From the sequence record PX880102.1: a DNA stretch of 64,000 nucleotides. One strand, 5' to 3'. The DNA comes from a phage. Shown here one piece after another: positions 37,217 through 49,912 of the stretch. Under the pieces are notes generated by a model that was not told the origin of the DNA, did no database searches, and saw nothing but the letters and a program-made list of their open reading frames with translations. The position numbers and the translations under genes are program-made. Position 1 is the stretch's first letter, and every line of letters begins with the position of its first letter.

Positions 37217-37357
37217 TTACCATACTAGTGAATGTAGTGCCATAATAACATCAGAAATGAAAAGCACGACTTGAATTAATCCGAACATTACTCCATAATA
37301 TAGTGCTACCAATAAAGTAGCAAGGGCTAATGAATAGCCCAAGATTTTCTTAATCAT
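37217..37357 (-). CDS. small membrane peptide (46 aa)
   Basis: manual translation; overlaps ac stop; T4 52.1 position. Confidence 0.4.
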   Translation of the reverse strand: MIKKILGYSLALATLLVALYYGVMFGLIQVVLFISDVIMALHSLVW

Positions 37358-37508
37358 TAGTAGATAACAACACAAATGTTAAATATGCACACATACCCTG
37401 AGCTAAAGCTTGCGAAAACACACTGCTGGCATCAATACAGATAGTTAAAACACATGCTACTATCCAACAAATAAATGAAATAACTCCTAATAATTTTGCG
37501 ATATTCAT
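37350..37508 (-). CDS. ac: probable Ac (acriflavine sensitivity) small membrane protein (52 aa)
   Basis: manual translation; size and position between 52 and stp. Confidence 0.5.
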   Translation of the reverse strand: MNIAKLLGVISFICWIVACVLTICIDASSVFSQALAQGMCAYLTFVLLSTND

Positions 37509-37515
37509 ATTTTCC

Positions 37516-37596
37516 TCACTGGCGTCCGAAGACGCCTTTGATTTTAAGATTGTTACGATAAAACTGCATCACATGTTCGTTATGGAAATTACTCAT
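37516..37596 (-). CDS. stp: Stp peptide (26 aa)
   Basis: manual translation [26 protein letters not shown]; start overlaps ndd stop (TAATG). Confidence 0.85.
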
Positions 37597-38054
37597 TAAT
37601 ATGCCTGTAAAACAAATTTAAAGTTATCAGCCAACATACGGTTCATTTCTTCAAGCGTTTGATACTCAGAATGATGGTTACGAGTAAACGCTAAAGCTAA
37701 CTGTCCTTTTCCAAATCCTGTCGTCAGAGGTTTCATCTTAGAAGCAGGCAGATAAAATACTGTGTATGGAACATTATTATTTGCAATAGTACGCGCAAGT
37801 TGAGACCGGCGTTGACGAATATGACTTAGAACTGCGCTGAATCCTTGCTTAGAACGTTGATTACCTACATAAAATCGTGCAGACACGCATGGATTACTAA
37901 ATGGACGACCATCTAATTTACTCACTAAAAAGTAAAATCCAGGTTTAGATAAAATGTCTTTATGTGGAGTTCCCAAAAACCACTCACCGCCCTTGATTGT
38001 ACCAATAACAGTAGCGCCCGCATTATTCAGATCAGTAACAGTCATATATTTCAT
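37596..38054 (-). CDS. ndd: nucleoid disruption protein Ndd (about 152 aa from MKYMTVTDL)
   Basis: ORF track 37596..38102 trimmed; size and position. Confidence 0.75.
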
Positions 38055-38114
38055 ATTAATTTCCTCTAAATTATTTTCTACTCCAAGGCCGCATGAATAC
38101 ACGCGGCCATTAAA

Positions 38115-38330
38115 TTAATCGTCGCAGTCGACGCTCAATTCCCAAAACTCTTCTACGGTATAAGTTTCAGTATCATTTTCAATACAGAAACGTTCATTAC
38201 TGTTATTTGCTAAAGTAGCGTTAACTGTCATTTTCTCGCTGGTGCTCTTAAGAGGTGAAATACGAATTAACTGATCACCGTTATCTAAACAGAAAATTTC
38301 ACCAACTTTTACATCTTTAAAGATTTTCAT
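38115..38330 (-). CDS. hypothetical protein (71 aa)
   Basis: ORF track; GAGGTGA RBS. Confidence 0.5.
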   Translation of the reverse strand: MKIFKDVKVGEIFCLDNGDQLIRISPLKSTSEKMTVNATLANNSNERFCIENDTETYTVEEFWELSVDCDD

Positions 38331-38338
38331 AATTCACC

Positions 38339-38449
38339 TCAAGGAGTATAAAATCCGAATGCAGTTGTTGACCATCCCATCCAATATGGGAAATTTGCAC
38401 CAATGTAAAACATAAGAATATAAAACCAACCGCTCAGTAAATTCATCAT
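38339..38449 (-). CDS. hydrophobic micro-protein (36 aa)
   Basis: manual translation; ATGA overlap with upstream gene. Confidence 0.35.
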   Translation of the reverse strand: MMNLLSGWFYILMFYIGANFPYWMGWSTTAFGFYTP

Positions 38450-38664
38450 TTTACACCATTCCAAATTGTTTCAACTACGGATTTTAAACCATTTTGATGA
38501 ATATCCATTCCGACTACCGCCATCAAATAGATTCCAACTACAACTGAACCTAAGGCAAAAATCAGCATGAAAATGAATAAAGCCGGAAAAATATTATCGA
38601 AAAACCATTCAATAAATGTAAAAGCACTGCGTTTACGCTTCATATTTTCCTCACATAAATCCAA
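38446..38664 (-). CDS. small membrane protein (72 aa)
   Basis: ORF track; hydrophobic core. Confidence 0.5.
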   Translation of the reverse strand: MDLCEENMKRKRSAFTFIEWFFDNIFPALFIFMLIFALGSVVVGIYLMAVVGMDIHQNGLKSVVETIWNGVK

Positions 38665-38764
38665 AGTAAACGTTTAATACATCAATCATTAAAACGATTG
38701 GGAATATACTCAAAACTATTAGTATTATAACTACATTCCATATAGCTTTAATAATCTTTTTCAT
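38651..38764 (-). CDS. hydrophobic micro-protein (37 aa)
   Basis: ORF track 38651..38860 trimmed; upstream codons are promoter leader. Confidence 0.4.
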   Translation of the reverse strand: MKKIIKAIWNVVIILIVLSIFPIVLMIDVLNVYFGFM

Positions 38765-38789
38765 TTTCTGTTCCTCCGTAGTTGATAGA

Positions 38790-38825
38790 GTAATAATACC
38801 ACAGAGGAACAGTCTTGTAAACAAC
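38790..38825 (-). promoter_or_regulatory. T4-type early promoter
   Basis: GTTTAC (38817-38822 rc), 18 nt, TATTAT; conserved CAACTACGGAGG leader. Confidence 0.5.
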
Positions 38826-38828
38826 TTT

Positions 38829-38927
38829 TTAAAAATATTCGTAATAAATGTGAATACCAATCACTACTGCCGAAACTTGTGCAACCCACCACGCACAAGC
38901 AATAAGTACAGAATTAAAAATTTTCAT
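38829..38927 (-). CDS. hydrophobic micro-protein (32 aa)
   Basis: manual translation; ATGA overlap with upstream micro-ORF. Confidence 0.35.
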   Translation of the reverse strand: MKIFNSVLIACAWWVAQVSAVVIGIHIYYEYF

Positions 38928-39010
38928 AATAACCTCATCACAAAAGTAAATGTTAAACAAATTACTGGAATACTAATTAACCAAACAAAACACCACCATA
39001 GTGAACTCAT
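38924..39010 (-). CDS. hydrophobic micro-protein (28 aa)
   Basis: manual translation; ATGA overlaps at both ends. Confidence 0.35.
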   Translation of the reverse strand: MSSLWWCFVWLISIPVICLTFTFVMRLL

Positions 39011-39270
39011 AGCTCAATCTCAGCGATTTTCATTTCATTACTATTAATAGCCGCTTTAAGACTATCTGAAAGAATTACATTCCAATGGTCATTCATATGA
39101 CCACTAACTAAGTGTGTAATTTCTTCAGGAGTTGAAAAATAAGGCGTATCAGACTCCCAATGCGATAGTCCCAAGCGAGTATAAATCATACCTTCATCAT
39201 CGCTAGAATATTCAACTGACACAAACTCATCAGTTATTTTATGTTTAGCATAATAAAATTTAAATTTCAT
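39007..39270 (-). CDS. hypothetical protein (87 aa)
   Basis: ORF track 39007..39363 trimmed to ATG after GGAGG leader. Confidence 0.5.
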   Translation of the reverse strand: MKFKFYYAKHKITDEFVSVEYSSDDEGMIYTRLGLSHWESDTPYFSTPEEITHLVSGHMNDHWNVILSDSLKAAINSNEMKIAEIEL

Positions 39271-39295
39271 TTTCTGTTCCTCCGTAGTTGATAGT

Positions 39296-39330
39296 TGTAT
39301 AGTACCACGGTCCTTGTGGTATGTAAACCG
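39296..39330 (-). promoter_or_regulatory. T4-type early promoter
   Basis: GTTTAC (39323-39328 rc), 18 nt, TACTAT; conserved leader. Confidence 0.5.
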
Positions 39331-39344
39331 TTTTGTGAAAATTT

Positions 39345-39902
39345 TTAAATGGAAAGATACCATCCGTTGTAGTTGCTTTTTCTTACAACCTTACGAAGGT
39401 CTTCTCTATCACCGATGAACTTCGGAGTGTACTGGATGACACCTGGATGAATTTCTTTAGTGTTGAATATAATTATACAGTCCGCGACTTGATGATTTAG
39501 AATGGGCCCTAGATTTATTCCAGAACCATATGGATACTCTCCGCTGCATCCCGTTGTTACCGAAATCCAACGCGAGTCAGTTTGATGTGTCTTAACTTCT
39601 ACACGGAGCCCACAGTATTTTGGATGTGCTAAAACATCCCATGCATACGTGTACGGATCATCGACATCTTCTTGGCCTTTATTGACATATCCGCTTAGCC
39701 AATCTGCCACCACATACTCGGCATACACTGCGATACGGCATCTTTCGATAACTTCTGCCTTATCCTGATTTGGGTTTTGTTTTAAAGAGTATCTCGCAGT
39801 ATCAGCAATTTTGACCTTCATTTCACTGGTCAAATCACTGTTCGATAGGGTAAATGTCGGAATCTGAAATAGTCTCTGTAACCCCGGATTCGTTTTCTGC
39901 AT
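39345..39902 (-). CDS. denB: probable endonuclease IV (185 aa)
   Basis: 185 aa as T4 DenB; position upstream of the ndd-side micro-ORFs. Confidence 0.55.
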   Translation of the reverse strand: MQKTNPGLQRLFQIPTFTLSNSDLTSEMKVKIADTARYSLKQNPNQDKAEVIERCRIAVYAEYVVADWLSGYVNKGQEDVDDPYTYAWDVLAHPKYCGLRVEVKTHQTDSRWISVTTGCSGEYPYGSGINLGPILNHQVADCIIIFNTKEIHPGVIQYTPKFIGDREDLRKVVRKSNYNGWYLSI

Positions 39903-40164
39903 TTAGACTTTCCTTTTTACCGCTGAGATAAGCGTTATATACTTTAAGAGTACCATAATAAATTCGGTCATTTTCATCTAAAGACTCGAGGTCAAGTTCA
40001 TCGAGCTCCTTTTTATCCATGACTATAACATCATTACAGTAAAGAAACCCAAGTTTTTCGTGACCAAACTCAAATTTATTACAGTACACAATATTAGCGT
40101 GATGATTTCCGTGCAGTTTAATCTCTTTTATGTCGGAATCGCCGATATTCATACAATAAATCAT
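39835..40164 (-). CDS. hypothetical acidic protein (109 aa)
   Basis: ORF track; 68 nt overlap with denB start leaves one of the two starts uncertain. Confidence 0.45.
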   Translation of the reverse strand: MIYCMNIGDSDIKEIKLHGNHHANIVYCNKFEFGHEKLGFLYCNDVIVMDKKELDELDLESLDENDRIYYGTLKVYNAYLSGKKESLNAENESGVTETISDSDIYPIEQ

Positions 40165-40171
40165 AATTTTT

Positions 40172-40196
40172 CCTTAAAACAAAAGGGCCGAAGCCC
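40172..40196 (-). terminator. intrinsic terminator
   Basis: GGGCUUCGGCCC hairpin plus UUUUGUUUU. Confidence 0.55.
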
Positions 40197-40202
40197 TTTA
40201 TT

Positions 40203-40397
40203 TTACTTGAATTGTGCAATTCTTTTCTCTAGACATTCAGCATAAGATTTCATTGAGATGAACTGTGAAAGCAGCAGTTCTTGCTCAACTGTACTAACCG
40301 TTAGAAACTTCGTGCTTTCTAAAAATTTGCTCAGTGCATTAATTTTGAGCATTAATTGATCGTATTCTTCTTTTACTCGTGCTTGATAACCTAACAT
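40203..40397 (-). CDS. hypothetical protein (64 aa)
   Basis: ORF track; AAGGAAAATTATG RBS. Confidence 0.5.
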   Translation of the reverse strand: MLGYQARVKEEYDQLMLKINALSKFLESTKFLTVSTVEQELLLSQFISMKSYAECLEKRIAQFK

Positions 40398-40425
40398 AAT
40401 TTTCCTTAGTTAAGGGCCGAAGCCC

Positions 40426-41364
40426 TTATTTAAATTGTTCAGTAACGTCTTCAACTACTTCATATTGACAGGTACGCATTTTAGCATCGTTGTAATCAAT
40501 CGGAATTGATACTACATCACGCGGATGCACTTTAACTTTTACAACTCTACTGGTTGAACTACCAAAGTGACGAATATAAGATTTAGAACACACATGCAGA
40601 CCACGAGAACAAGTTTGTGTATCATCGTCATTCACACGAGTACGTGGCATTTTAACTACTTTACCAGGACTGTTATCAAAAGTATTTGAATGGCAGTCAA
40701 AGTAATTGCTGCGAACTACTTTCCAAGCATAGAAGTAGCCATCTTCTGTAATTTCAATATCGTTTGCTACCAAGAAATCAAAGAGTCGAGATACCGCTTT
40801 CTGGCTTGGGTTTTCCAGCAGATTTTCCAAGAACGGAAAATAAAATTCAAAGTTTTCGCCTTTTTCCATCGAATCAAGAATACGATCAACCAAACCAGAC
40901 CGCAATTCAATATTTTGATAGAACAAGCTTCCACCTTCAATTCGAACATCGCCGGAAATATATTTTTCAACAGCGCGACGAACATTAATTTTTTGTGCCG
41001 CTTCTTCTAACTTATCTGCTACGAGCAGATTAAGAATTTCCTGGAAGTTTGAATGAGTATTAGGTGTTGCATTATAAGTTACACCATCAACAGTAATCGA
41101 AATGAATTTTTTAGATGCATTCCAAATAATGTCAGATTTAGCAACTGGAGCAATAACTGCATCGCTATTAACTTTAACTGTAATATCACCGCTAATAGTA
41201 ATTTTAGAGTGTTTAGCTTCTTCAGCATTTTTCAAAACACGACGGATTGTATCAACCGATACACCTTGCCAATCAGCCAATTCCTGCTGAGTATAATTAC
41301 CGCTTGAATACAGTTTAACAATTTCAGCTTGTTCGTTTTTGGTCAGGCATTTAATATTGTACAT
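40426..41364 (-). CDS. rIIB: rIIB protein (312 aa)
   Basis: 312 aa; directly downstream of rIIA. Confidence 0.85.
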   Translation of the reverse strand: MYNIKCLTKNEQAEIVKLYSSGNYTQQELADWQGVSVDTIRRVLKNAEEAKHSKITISGDITVKVNSDAVIAPVAKSDIIWNASKKFISITVDGVTYNATPNTHSNFQEILNLLVADKLEEAAQKINVRRAVEKYISGDVRIEGGSLFYQNIELRSGLVDRILDSMEKGENFEFYFPFLENLLENPSQKAVSRLFDFLVANDIEITEDGYFYAWKVVRSNYFDCHSNTFDNSPGKVVKMPRTRVNDDDTQTCSRGLHVCSKSYIRHFGSSTSRVVKVKVHPRDVVSIPIDYNDAKMRTCQYEVVEDVTEQFK

Positions 41365-48661: not shown

Positions 48662-49165
48662 TTATCTCATTTCAATAAAATCTACAAGTTCAGCATGGGA
48701 TTTGCGGAACATTACTTGATGCCCGCCAATGATAACTTGGTCATCTGGCACTTCGTATACAGCAAGATAAAATCCTTTAGAAGATAATTCTTCACGCTCT
48801 TCTCGTGTGAACCATCTCATCATATCATATTCACTAGCGAAAGCAAAATGATACAATGCAATAAACCATCCTGGAATATGATATTCTACGCCTACATATT
48901 CTTCTTTCTCAAATTTAGTATTAATTGCTATATTAGCATTTTTAACTAATAATTTGTCTTCGCGTGGAAGAGGAATTCTTTTGTTATCATTACTATGATG
49001 CATAAAATTAGGTCTATCATAACCTACGTGTAATAACCACTCTTCGCTCCATGAATCTATTATACTCCTGTATGGCGTTATTTGAACACAAAGATTTCGA
49101 CGTATTGTTATAGCATCTTCACAATTAAGAATACTAAAAGATGATTCAACACGATAAATTTTCAT
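48662..49165 (-). CDS. hypothetical protein (167 aa from MKIYRV)
   Basis: ORF track 48662..49204 trimmed; upstream codons are promoter leader. Confidence 0.5.
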   Translation of the reverse strand: MKIYRVESSFSILNCEDAITIRRNLCVQITPYRSIIDSWSEEWLLHVGYDRPNFMHHSNDNKRIPLPREDKLLVKNANIAINTKFEKEEYVGVEYHIPGWFIALYHFAFASEYDMMRWFTREEREELSSKGFYLAVYEVPDDQVIIGGHQVMFRKSHAELVDFIEMR

Positions 49166-49189
49166 TTTATTATCCTCAGTAGCTATGGT

Positions 49190-49225
49190 GTTATAGTACC
49201 ACAACTAACCGAGGAAGTAAACAAC
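49190..49225 (-). promoter_or_regulatory. T4-type early promoter
   Basis: GTTTAC (49217-49222 rc), 18 nt, TACTAT. Confidence 0.5.
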
Positions 49226-49228
49226 TTT

Positions 49229-49912
49229 TTATCGTTTGGTTGGAAGAGATAGAGGATCGCACTCTTCCTCTGACGGAGCATCTTCAAGACCCATAGCATA
49301 TCGCAAAGCATACTTCATCATCAGGATGTCTTTCGCACAATCATGAATAGAATCATGCGCAACGAATCCGTCTAAAGTTCCCTTTGGAAGAGGACATGTG
49401 GTCATATCACGAACAAGCAGAAGTGCTTCAATTCTGGTACGAATATCACGCTGATTCCAGAATTTACATGGTTCTAACTTAAATGTATCAAGCTCATTCT
49501 CAGAAACGCCGTTAAAACGTTGAATATCGCGAATGAGATCAACTAAAATTGGAAAATCAAACGACATTCCACGGCACCAGCCTTGAGATTTCCAAGGATC
49601 GATGTTATGTGCATTGATGTAATCATTAAATTTTGCAATACCATCGATAGTGCTTACATCTTCATCCGATGGTGCAATATTTTTTCGAGCTTCAGGAGAT
49701 TGATTTTTCCACCATTCGATAGTGCTTTTAGTAAAAAGACGATGTCCTTTTTGGCTTTTTAAATCAAACTTGATTTTAATGCCGCGTGAAACTAATTCAT
49801 CAAATGTTTCAACTACTTCTGGATTAGGGTCAAAGGCAATAACAGCCAAATCAATAACAGCTGCCTTTTCACCGCTTCCCATTGTTTCAAAATCTATAAT
49901 AAAATCAAACAT
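49229..49912 (-). CDS. dexA: exonuclease A, DEDD-family 3'-5' exonuclease (227 aa)
   Basis: 227 aa; N-terminal DFETMG acidic motif. Confidence 0.85.
   Translation of the reverse strand: MFDFIIDFETMGSGEKAAVIDLAVIAFDPNPEVVETFDELVSRGIKIKFDLKSQKGHRLFTKSTIEWWKNQSPEARKNIAPSDEDVSTIDGIAKFNDYINAHNIDPWKSQGWCRGMSFDFPILVDLIRDIQRFNGVSENELDTFKLEPCKFWNQRDIRTRIEALLLVRDMTTCPLPKGTLDGFVAHDSIHDCAKDILMMKYALRYAMGLEDAPSEEECDPLSLPTKR

Follow-up and report, generated by a model that had tools for sequence, protein, structure and literature searches.

The seven small open reading frames (ORFs) between denB and ndd in this phage are very probably part of the hyperplastic ndd-denB region of a T-even genome, expressed as two immediate-early units. 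The stretch analysed, 64,000 nucleotides of record PX880102.1 and called the window here, is Tequatrovirus DNA with 98.6% identity to phage EPIMRB01. Judged by its sequence matches, the cluster is ordinary and already known, consisting of T4 ndd.1-ndd.6 plus ORF268 of phage PST. The region has been published as a hotspot of promoter-cassette shuffling, and the cluster itself adds nothing new. What is new is confined to an RNA hairpin, which seems to link the translation of ndd.4 to its own promoter. The first-pass annotation had described a single translationally coupled chain, and we replace this with two promoter-headed units. Unit 1, starting at promoter P1, would comprise the 87-aa protein, ndd.6 and ndd.5. 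Unit 2, starting at promoter P2, would comprise ndd.4, the 65-aa DUF7248 protein, ndd.2 and ndd.1, and would probably continue into ndd. Each unit would begin with a strong early promoter of the T4 type, followed by a short leader with a GGAGG ribosome-binding site. The features of the locus are listed in Table 1.

Table 1. Features of the ndd-denB interval, with coordinates in the window
Feature	Coordinates	Strand	Remarks
Early promoter P1 (GTTTAC ... GTGGTACTAT)	39299..39328	-	Between denB and the 87-aa gene
P1 leader (CTATCAACTACGGAGGAACAGAAAATGAAA)	39265..39294	-	30-nt exact copy of the P2 leader; holds GGAGG and the ATG of the 87-aa gene
87-aa acidic soluble protein	39007..39270	-	phrog_2390; phage PST ORF268
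28-aa hydrophobic peptide, T4 ndd.6	38924..39010	-	Probably ATGA-coupled to the 87-aa gene
32-aa hydrophobic peptide, T4 ndd.5	38829..38927	-	ATGA overlap with ndd.6; probable coupling
Early promoter P2 (GTTTAC ... GTGGTATTAT)	38793..38822	-	Between ndd.5 and ndd.4
Predicted promoter-spanning RNA hairpin	38768..38812	-	15 bp, z -4.46
37-aa single-pass membrane candidate, T4 ndd.4	38651..38764	-	ATG adjoins the ribosome-binding site
65-aa candidate membrane protein, T4 ndd.3 + ndd.2a	38446..38643	-	DUF7248, phrog_2401
36-aa aromatic-rich peptide, T4 ndd.2	38339..38449	-	Probably ATGA-coupled to the 65-aa gene
71-aa acidic soluble protein, T4 ndd.1	38115..38330	-	GAGGTG Shine-Dalgarno
9-bp G+C-rich stem-loop, ndd.1/ndd interval	38087..38108	-	z -3.3; no U-tract behind

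All seven ORFs proposed at first pass, of 87, 28, 32, 37, 65, 36 and 71 aa in order of transcription, were present at their expected limits. They fill 38115-39270 on the minus strand and each starts with ATG. The suggested synteny with T4 ndd.1-ndd.6 was borne out. The cluster is collinear with T4 166101-166996, with the same strand and gene order from ndd to denB, and the position between these two genes is common to the window and T4 (NC_000866 / AF158101). Six of the ORFs have T4 counterparts (ndd.6, ndd.5, ndd.4, ndd.3 + ndd.2a, ndd.2 and ndd.1), and the T4 products are 94-100% identical to the window proteins when ndd.2a and ndd.3 are taken together. The T4 annotation describes the ndd.1-ndd.6 products as predicted membrane or periplasmic proteins. 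Every one of the seven matched a PHROG profile over its full length (phrog_2390, 8851, 5011, 3098, 2401, 4135 and 2183), with E-values from 1e-17 to 1e-45. A Pfam search of the seven ORFs returned no match besides DUF7248, found for the 65-aa protein at 71.9 bits (cut-off 27).

The substitution patterns show that all seven products come from real genes under purifying selection. The ratio pN/pS was 0.06-0.12 in six of the seven ORFs (87-aa gene, 0.11; ndd.6, 0.12; ndd.5, 0.09; 65-aa gene, 0.09; ndd.2, 0.06; ndd.1, 0.09). The neighbours denB and ndd gave similar values (0.04 and 0.08), and shifted frames gave 0.7 or more. For ndd.4 the ratio was 0.33 within Tequatrovirus, a value from only 7 variable sites. 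Variation in the ORFs was concentrated at third codon positions, and the frames were intact in 15-25 sampled relatives. Homologues of the 87-aa gene, ndd.6, ndd.4 and ndd.1 were found in other genera, where peptide motifs are 44-61% identical. Those of ndd.6 share the motif W..W.LSIP.IC in Mosigvirus, Gaprivervirus and other genera, those of ndd.1 have 43-52% identity in Mosigvirus and Gaprivervirus, and ndd.4 matched 597 phage records, with the motifs KAIWN and LSIFPIV.MID kept across genera. The first-pass annotation had allowed that the frames might lack conservation among relatives; low pN/pS compared to the shifted frames points the other way. One could still take the ORFs for random open frames of the AT-rich early region, with a function left to the promoters and the larger genes alone, given that the ORFs are tiny (28-37 aa), are omitted from many GenBank annotations and compete with many overlapping alternatives in the ORF listing. 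We give this explanation almost no credence. It is already contradicted by the pN/pS values and third-position variation, by the intact frames, by the motifs in other genera and by start-stop junctions that have been kept.

The expectation that standard gene callers would miss these genes was partly right. Many GenBank records leave out several of the small ORFs, since five of seven are annotated in EPIMRB01, four in phage 107 and three in SP21535, but the T4 reference annotates all of its own and each of the seven has a PHROG family. PST carries ndd.5 and ndd.6, both left out of its annotation. The first-pass annotation was correct that the ORF listing extends two ORFs through the leader, as versions of 69 aa and 118 aa reading ...LSTTEEQKM are listed. 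Long forms also occur in public records (SH7, 120 aa; IME537, 118 aa; and, at 119 aa, the representative of a cluster of 186 members). We consider these N-terminal extensions spurious because a promoter lies inside each, a strong GGAGG is found 8 nt upstream of the short start, and homologues from other genera begin at the same Met. In T4, a C-to-T change in the leader has produced a further ATG upstream, and the annotated ndd.4 of 42 aa starts there. In the window, the start of ndd.4 is the ATG beside the ribosome-binding site, not the T4-specific one upstream. By this comparison of starts, the annotated N-termini of T4 ndd.4 and of many 87-aa gene copies in databases lie too far upstream. 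In the T4 reference, a 1-nt deletion splits the 65-aa gene into ndd.3 and ndd.2a, whereas the gene is intact in the window and in T4 records other than the reference. Read from these alignments, T4 ndd.2a and ndd.3 are one 65-aa gene. The single ndd.2a/ndd.3 gene, the over-extended starts and PST ndd.5 and ndd.6 are useful corrections to existing annotation.

The T4 early consensus GTTTAC-N-GTGGTAYTAT has 5 matches in the window compared to 0 expected. Both promoters also fit the TTTACW-N17-TAYWAT pattern of promoter-early stem-loop (PeSL) cassettes, with TTTACA-17-TACTAT at P1 and TTTACA-17-TATTAT at P2, and both have an A/T run upstream and GGAGG 8 nt 5' of an ATG. The two early promoters that the first-pass annotation had placed inside the array are real, but only P2 lies inside it; P1 is just beyond its end. 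P1 was kept in all sampled Tequatroviruses. The sequence CAACTACGGAGG occurs exactly 2 times in the window compared to 0.04 expected, and it belongs to a 30-nt exact direct repeat with copies 506 nt apart. The leader had been called conserved. It is indeed identical at P1 and P2 here, but this identity is restricted to the present lineage: among the sampled loci, only the window and EPIMRB01 have a P1 leader variant identical to that of P2, and other Tequatroviruses have two further leader variants at the upstream promoter.

The nearest published counterparts are ORF268/ORF269 of Yersinia phage PST and the PeSL cassettes (Arbiol 2010, PMC2839356; Comeau 2014, PMC4122927 Fig. 6A), for which PMC4122927 uses the ndd-denB locus as an example. 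The window resembles these cases in that cassettes of an early promoter and a ribosome-binding site flank variable genes, and in that gains and losses between close relatives map to the cassettes. It differs in lacking ORF269, a 68-aa gene of PST, slur04 and CE1. Four gene-content states were found in the P1 slot among relatives. The 87-aa gene is missing from T4 through an in-frame deletion that spares its last 8 codons; this remnant, MKI(A/V)EIEL, is what T4 and EP01 keep of the lost gene, and it still has the ATGA overlap with ndd.6. Where the gene is present, it has two alleles with 52% identity within flanks that are ~97% identical. Comparison of these relatives shows that the promoter cassettes double as recombination sites, which would explain the gain, loss and replacement of P1-slot genes. 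Since PST has ndd.5 and ndd.6, the published 'exchange' is in fact an insertion/deletion.

The ATGA overlaps thought to link the whole series occur at three of the six junctions (87->28, 28->32 and 65->36). At the others, a 64-nt spacer bearing a promoter separates the 32-aa and 37-aa ORFs, and gaps of 7 nt and 8 nt are found at 37->65 and 36->71. The ATGA overlaps and the ribosome-binding sites are conserved in relatives. The ribosome-binding sites of ndd.6 and ndd.2 are weak, and these two genes are probably translated by stop-start coupling at ATGA; ndd.5 has a GAGG Shine-Dalgarno, and the start codon of ndd.2 is polymorphic among relatives. Such overlaps, together with the T4 remnant of 8 codons that would still couple into ndd.6, could suggest that the small ORFs are uORF-like translational relays, where the act of translating and not the peptide controls ndd.1 and ndd. 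This is very unlikely, since amino acids and not frames alone have been kept across genera (the ndd.4 and ndd.6 motifs given above), pN/pS is low, and ndd.1, the 65-aa gene and ndd.5 have good ribosome-binding sites of their own.

The predicted hairpin at P2 has the promoter spacer as its 5' arm (38798-38812) and the leader, including the ndd.4 GGAGG, as its 3' arm (38768-38782). Its loop contains the -10 element together with the presumed site of transcription start. In RNA initiated upstream, the stem covers ACUACGGAGGAACAG. The transcript predicted to start at P2 has a folding energy of 0 kcal/mol. According to this folding model, read-through RNA should be translationally silent for ndd.4 and P2-initiated RNA should be open. 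Three differences in T4 fall in the stem and all of them preserve pairing. The ndd.4 homologues in five Tevenvirinae genera have the same hairpin layout with different arm sequences, and the layout is present in Gaprivervirus, Dhakavirus, Kanagawavirus and Mosugukvirus. Because MAFFT misaligned the Gaprivervirus promoter region, the energies of cognate and non-cognate duplexes were compared instead of counting pairs. Duplexes between promoter and ribosome-binding site had a mean of -17.4 kcal/mol for cognate arms compared to -9.2 kcal/mol for non-cognate arms, and only 1 of 720 permutations reached the observed duplex total; this covariation represents about four independent lineages, as the Gaprivervirus and Dhakavirus arms are similar. 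A weak version of the hairpin was found in L010 (-8.9 kcal/mol). The version at P1 has 7 bp only, which leaves unit 1 outside the gating idea. There was no significant stem upstream of the -35 element at P1 or P2, and an Rfam search of 37500-40500 gave no credible match.

Another possible explanation is that the P2 hairpin is a cassette element with no gating role, such as a recombination site, a stabiliser or processing site of RNA 3' ends or an attenuator of P1 transcripts. PeSL cassettes by definition hold a stem-loop, these stem-loops have been proposed as terminators and recombination sites (PMC2839356, PMC4122927), and gene gains and losses map to the cassettes. Also, the window early promoters at 2546 and 18279 have hairpins that stop short of the ribosome-binding site. 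We consider this explanation rather unlikely for P2. The stem is no intrinsic terminator, since no U-tract follows it. In 5 of 5 genera the ribosome-binding site itself lies within the 3' arm, despite the differing arm sequences. Finally, published PeSL stem-loops sit upstream of the promoter and not across it (PMC4122927), whereas the P2 stem extends across the spacer, the -10 element and the leader, with the ribosome-binding site among its paired bases.

A gate on ndd.4 would have precedents in T4, where hairpins sequester the ribosome-binding sites of e, soc, 49 and I-TevI (PMC3014915). As in those genes, the P2 ribosome-binding site is predicted to be paired in RNA from upstream promoters, and the internal promoter is predicted to give RNA without the 5' arm that is open for translation. 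The internal promoter is late in those genes but early (sigma-70) at P2 and, therefore, the putative gate would not delay translation but limit it to the first minutes. We propose that, in RNA reading through from P1, the ndd.4 ribosome-binding site would be paired with the P2 spacer, so that ndd.4 would be translated only from P2-started RNA, in a brief early-promoter burst. RegB cleaves GGAG in early ribosome-binding sites (PMC3014915), and such cleavage in both leaders would sharpen the shut-off. If the hairpin does gate ndd.4, a classic regulatory idea from T4 late genes extends to early cassettes, with a simple way to test why the microproteins must be made only briefly. More tentatively, hairpins between untranscribed promoter DNA and the downstream ribosome-binding site might be a general insulator of T-even early cassettes and ndd.4 a pan-Tevenvirinae membrane microprotein with a specific host target. 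If the insulator reading is true, translation of a cassette would be tied to its own promoter and silent on read-through RNA, membrane microproteins would be confined to the first minutes and cassettes could be shuffled without polar effects.

Most of the products had been described as hydrophobic or aromatic, which is true of five of the seven; the 87-aa and 71-aa proteins are acidic and soluble. Using a ~19-residue Kyte-Doolittle window above 1.6 as the membrane criterion, a transmembrane segment was predicted for four of the seven (best 19-residue values: ndd.6, 2.33; ndd.5, 2.18; ndd.4, 3.06; 65-aa protein, 2.71), while ndd.2 stayed below the threshold at 1.17. By this measure, the 28-, 32-, 37- and 65-aa products are clear single-pass membrane candidates. 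The ndd.2 product is 33% aromatic and has zero charged residues. A lipoprotein signal in ndd.5 (LIAC, residues 8-11) was considered and rejected, as the Cys is too near the N-terminus and the 'mature' part is itself hydrophobic. The AlphaFold2 model of the 87-aa protein has a pLDDT of 93; comparing its fold with the PDB gave no match, and PDB-chain sequence searches with the 87-aa and 71-aa proteins gave nothing significant.

Imm, Sp, Ac, Stp and RI, characterised small membrane proteins and peptides of T4, are hydrophobic or peptide-sized, early and dispensable on laboratory hosts, as the ndd peptides appear to be, and some characterised T4 small early genes (ac and stp) adjoin the cluster. 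The five proteins have no sequence similarity to the seven products in PHROG or Pfam. To our knowledge, no phenotype has been attributed to ndd.1-ndd.6. With low certainty, we suggest that, in the first minutes of infection, the peptides may insert into the inner membrane of the host and affect envelope or membrane functions there, and that they may be dispensable on laboratory hosts. The membrane peptides could also be specific effectors that act in counter-defence, in superinfection exclusion or as a stimulator of phosphatidylglycerol synthesis after infection. They are hydrophobic, appear to be early and dispensable, and lie in a variable region beside stp, ac and ndd. Phage with the sa-delta-9 deletion, which spans this region, are viable and no longer stimulate phospholipid synthesis upon infection, and the rII-delta-DD2 deletion likewise has no lipid-synthesis effect (PMC6071114). 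The phospholipid effect is also lost in a strain with dCTPase, EndoIV and Alc mutations (PMC6071114). The link is ambiguous, as denB, ndd, ac and stp are missing from the deletion phages as well and the dCTPase/EndoIV/Alc mutant lacks the effect too. The sa-delta-9 phenotype was therefore dropped as a functional lead, since the deletion and mutant data do not single out the ORFs. We regard a specific effector role as possible but doubtful. Loss of denB or of other deleted genes could cause the lipid phenotype, and PHROG, Pfam and PDB-chain searches gave no homology to characterised proteins. In sequence or fold, no similarity was found to characterised superinfection-exclusion, holin/antiholin or anti-defence families. 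In the literature library searched, neither the ndd.x names nor the DUF or PHROG identifiers nor T4 ribosome profiling led to functional data or to an assigned function. The roles suggested at first pass (superinfection exclusion, lysis timing, counter-defence) thus found neither support nor contradiction in any tool result or paper.

Two further features were observed beside the cluster. In the window, ac is at 37350-37508 and stp at 37516-37596. The stem-loop between ndd.1 and ndd is conserved in T4.

The 1.4 kb around the feature shares 98.6% identity with Escherichia phage EPIMRB01 and matches 505 phage records, nearly all Tequatrovirus. Its minus-strand gene order is that of T4: gene 52, 52.1, ac, stp, ndd, small ORFs, denB, denB.1, rIIB. 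All seven small ORFs proposed between ndd and denB by the first-pass annotation were found, each ATG-initiated and exactly at the limits it gave. They were said to form a chain linked by ATGA overlaps, which holds for three of the six junctions (87→28, 28→32 and 65→36 aa) but not for the others, which are a 64-nt promoter-bearing spacer and gaps of 7 and 8 nt. Most of the products are hydrophobic or aromatic, as had been described. Four have a best 19-residue Kyte-Doolittle window of 2.2-3.1, and the 36-aa product is 33% aromatic with zero charged residues; the remaining two, of 87 and 71 aa, are acidic, soluble proteins.

Features of the ndd-denB locus and of related elements in the window (pN/pS from 15-25 Tequatrovirus copies per ORF)
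Feature	Position	Strand	Start	pN/pS
87-aa ORF	39007-39270	-	ATG	0.11
28-aa ORF (ndd.6)	38924-39010	-	ATG	0.12
32-aa ORF (ndd.5)	38829-38927	-	ATG	0.09
37-aa ORF (ndd.4)	38651-38764	-	ATG	0.33 (just 7 variable sites)
65-aa ORF (ndd.3 + ndd.2a)	38446-38643	-	ATG	0.09
36-aa ORF (ndd.2)	38339-38449	-	ATG	0.06
71-aa ORF (ndd.1)	38115-38330	-	ATG	0.09
ndd (neighbour)				0.08
denB (neighbour), 185-aa model	39345-39902			0.04
Shifted frames of same DNA				≥0.7
Early promoter P1	39299-39328
Early promoter P2	38793-38822
ndd.4 hairpin, P2 spacer arm	38798-38812
ndd.4 hairpin, leader arm	38768-38782
Stem-loop between ndd.1 and ndd	38087-38108	-
109-aa ORF	39835-40164	-
denB.1	40203-40397
Terminator-like hairpins	40182-40199, 40411-40428
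Hairpin downstream of dexA	49150-49235	-
Early promoter of that hairpin	49193-49222

The seven genes are real, but they are already known. Alignment to T4 and its annotation confirmed the expected synteny with ndd.1-ndd.6, and all seven ORFs match a PHROG family over their full length. The suggestion that standard callers would miss them was therefore too strong, although ndd.5 and ndd.6 are indeed intact yet unannotated in phage PST (L036 1335-1516). The 65-aa ORF corresponds to two T4 genes because a 1-nt deletion just after the start codon (ATGAA-CGT) interrupts it in the T4 reference (L001, NC_000866, 3433-3629). It is intact in RB59 and two further T4 records (KJ477685 and OZ209057), 494 of the 495 phage records with a match span 80% or more of the query in one place, and the unbroken protein has a Pfam match, DUF7248. 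The T4 annotation gives ndd.4 five extra codons, since a C-to-T change in the leader, the short stretch between promoter and start codon, makes an ATG within the ribosome-binding site. The 87-aa gene, missing from T4, is ORF268 of Yersinia phage PST and occurs in 667 phage records, including Mosigvirus (~65% identity) and Dhakavirus/Gaprivervirus (~30%).

A lack of reading-frame conservation, which would have spoken against these ORFs, was looked for and not seen, since pN/pS is low and homologues occur across genera. Third codon positions hold most of the variation among the Tequatrovirus copies. Homologues in other genera share the motif W..W.LSIP.IC for ndd.6 and KAIWN...LSIFPIV.MID for ndd.4. 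The latter gene is the most widespread (597 records), and in Mosugukvirus it is the sole ORF between denB and ndd. The start of ndd.2 varies (38444-38449; sampled loci L005, L006, L021 and L030) among ATGATG, ATAATG, ATGATA and ATAATA, and EP01 has a canonical start codon at neither position. The first-pass observations were largely right and their interpretation partly supported.

No functional hint was found for the seven products in PHROG, Pfam, Rfam or literature searches, nor for the 87-aa and 71-aa proteins among PDB chains, and PMC6071114 assigns no function to the ndd.x products. Phage carrying the deletion sa-delta-9 (52.1 to denB inclusive) are viable and no longer stimulate phospholipid synthesis upon infection, but the deletion takes out further genes as well, and data from other mutants point to another cause (PMC6071114). 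The 87-aa protein is confidently modeled as a beta-sheet and two helices (pLDDT 93), and a comparison with solved structures gave no significant match. Our best guess, from their composition, timing and neighbourhood in the genome, is that the products may be early inner-membrane modulators.

Both early promoters reported within the array are supported by matches to the T4 early-promoter consensus, of which the window holds five vs none expected; P1 lies just beyond the end given for the array. CAACTACGGAGG occurs exactly twice in the window, inside a 30-nt exact direct repeat with copies 506 nt apart. The mechanical ORF list does run two ORFs through the leader, giving the spurious N-terminal extension ...LSTTEEQKM. 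Public annotations are often over-extended likewise, with versions of 118-120 aa and a 119-aa cluster representative for 186 sequences.

A promoter-spanning hairpin at ndd.4, missed in the first pass, is a modest addition. In RNA reading through from P1, the P2 spacer CUGUUCCUCUGUGGU is predicted to pair with ACUACGGAGGAACAG in the leader, forming a 15-bp stem (z -4.46) that would bury the ndd.4 ribosome-binding site. RNA initiated at P2 does not contain the 5' arm and should, by prediction, have no structure. T4 has three differences in the stem and keeps pairing at 3/3. The same layout, with its own early promoter, is found at the ndd.4 homologues of Gaprivervirus TH22, Dhakavirus Bp7, Kanagawavirus CIP9 and Mosugukvirus PM2, but the arm sequences differ. 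Cognate duplexes between promoter and ribosome-binding site average -17.4 kcal/mol vs -9.2 for non-cognate ones, and across 720 permutations the true pairing alone reaches the observed total, with just ~4 lineages independent. The hairpins of T4 e, soc, 49 and I-TevI follow the same logic (PMC3014915), except that the internal promoter here is early. The GGAG of the leaders also matches the motif at which the RegB nuclease cuts (PMC3014915). No earlier description of the ndd.4 hairpin was found in the literature searched.

Similar pairing recurs in the window. In five of its 12 early-promoter cassettes (promoters at 2938, 6523, 38822, 49222 and 56533), at least 9 of the 19 bases in the ribosome-binding-site window pair with untranscribed promoter sequence. 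The strongest case besides ndd.4 lies downstream of dexA (MFE -32.1 kcal/mol, z -6.8), where the promoter spacer pairs with the GAGGA ribosome-binding site of a 167-aa ORF. Promoters at 2546 and 18279 have strong hairpins round the -10 element that stop short of the ribosome-binding site. The stem-loop between ndd.1 and ndd (9 bp, G+C-rich, z -3.3, no U-tract 3') is conserved in T4 and may serve in RNA stability or processing.

The slot behind P1 has at least four gene-content states among relatives. The window carries just the 87-aa gene there, PST, slur04 and CE1 carry a 68-aa gene as well, EP01 has the 68-aa gene without the 87-aa one, and T4 and RB59 have neither. T4 and EP01 lost the 87-aa gene by an in-frame deletion between AAATGAAA (codons 1-2) and its repeat (codons 80-81), leaving an 8-codon ORF, MKI(A/V)EIEL, that keeps the ATGA overlap with ndd.6. 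The ribosome-binding site of ndd.6 is weak and the gene probably depends on translational coupling, which the remnant ORF fits. Two alleles of the 87-aa gene exist within Tequatrovirus and are just ~52% identical (L011, L014, L015, L018, L025 and L028 compared with the window), vs ~97% for flanking genes (denB and ndd.6, 96-100%). This divergence suggests that the cassette was replaced or that selection is diversifying. Three variants of the P1 leader occur, and the one identical to the P2 leader is confined, among sampled loci, to the window and EPIMRB01. P1-like sequence stands at P2 in some phages, a sign of exchange between the two cassettes. The variation of slot and leader fits the published PeSL (promoter-early stem-loop) model of promoter-cassette-mediated shuffling, which has the ndd-denB locus among its examples (PMC4122927 Fig. 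6A). That account has ndd.4/.5 exchanged for ORF268/269. Since PST has ndd.5 and ndd.6, the event is better called an insertion/deletion of ORF268/269.

On the denB side, a 109-aa ORF (Pfam DUF7418, phrog_2237) lies between denB.1 and denB; T4 is without it but retains its last 26 codons. The ORF shares 68 nt with the 185-aa model of denB, and many records give denB as 158 aa from an internal Met (MKVKIAD...), so the denB start is ambiguous. On either side of denB.1 (Pfam crAss001_48-related) lies a terminator-like hairpin; the two are nearly identical, share the core AAGGGCCGAAGCCCTT and are similar to the GGGC...GCCC stem-loops considered in connection with PeSLs and with T4 deletion endpoints.
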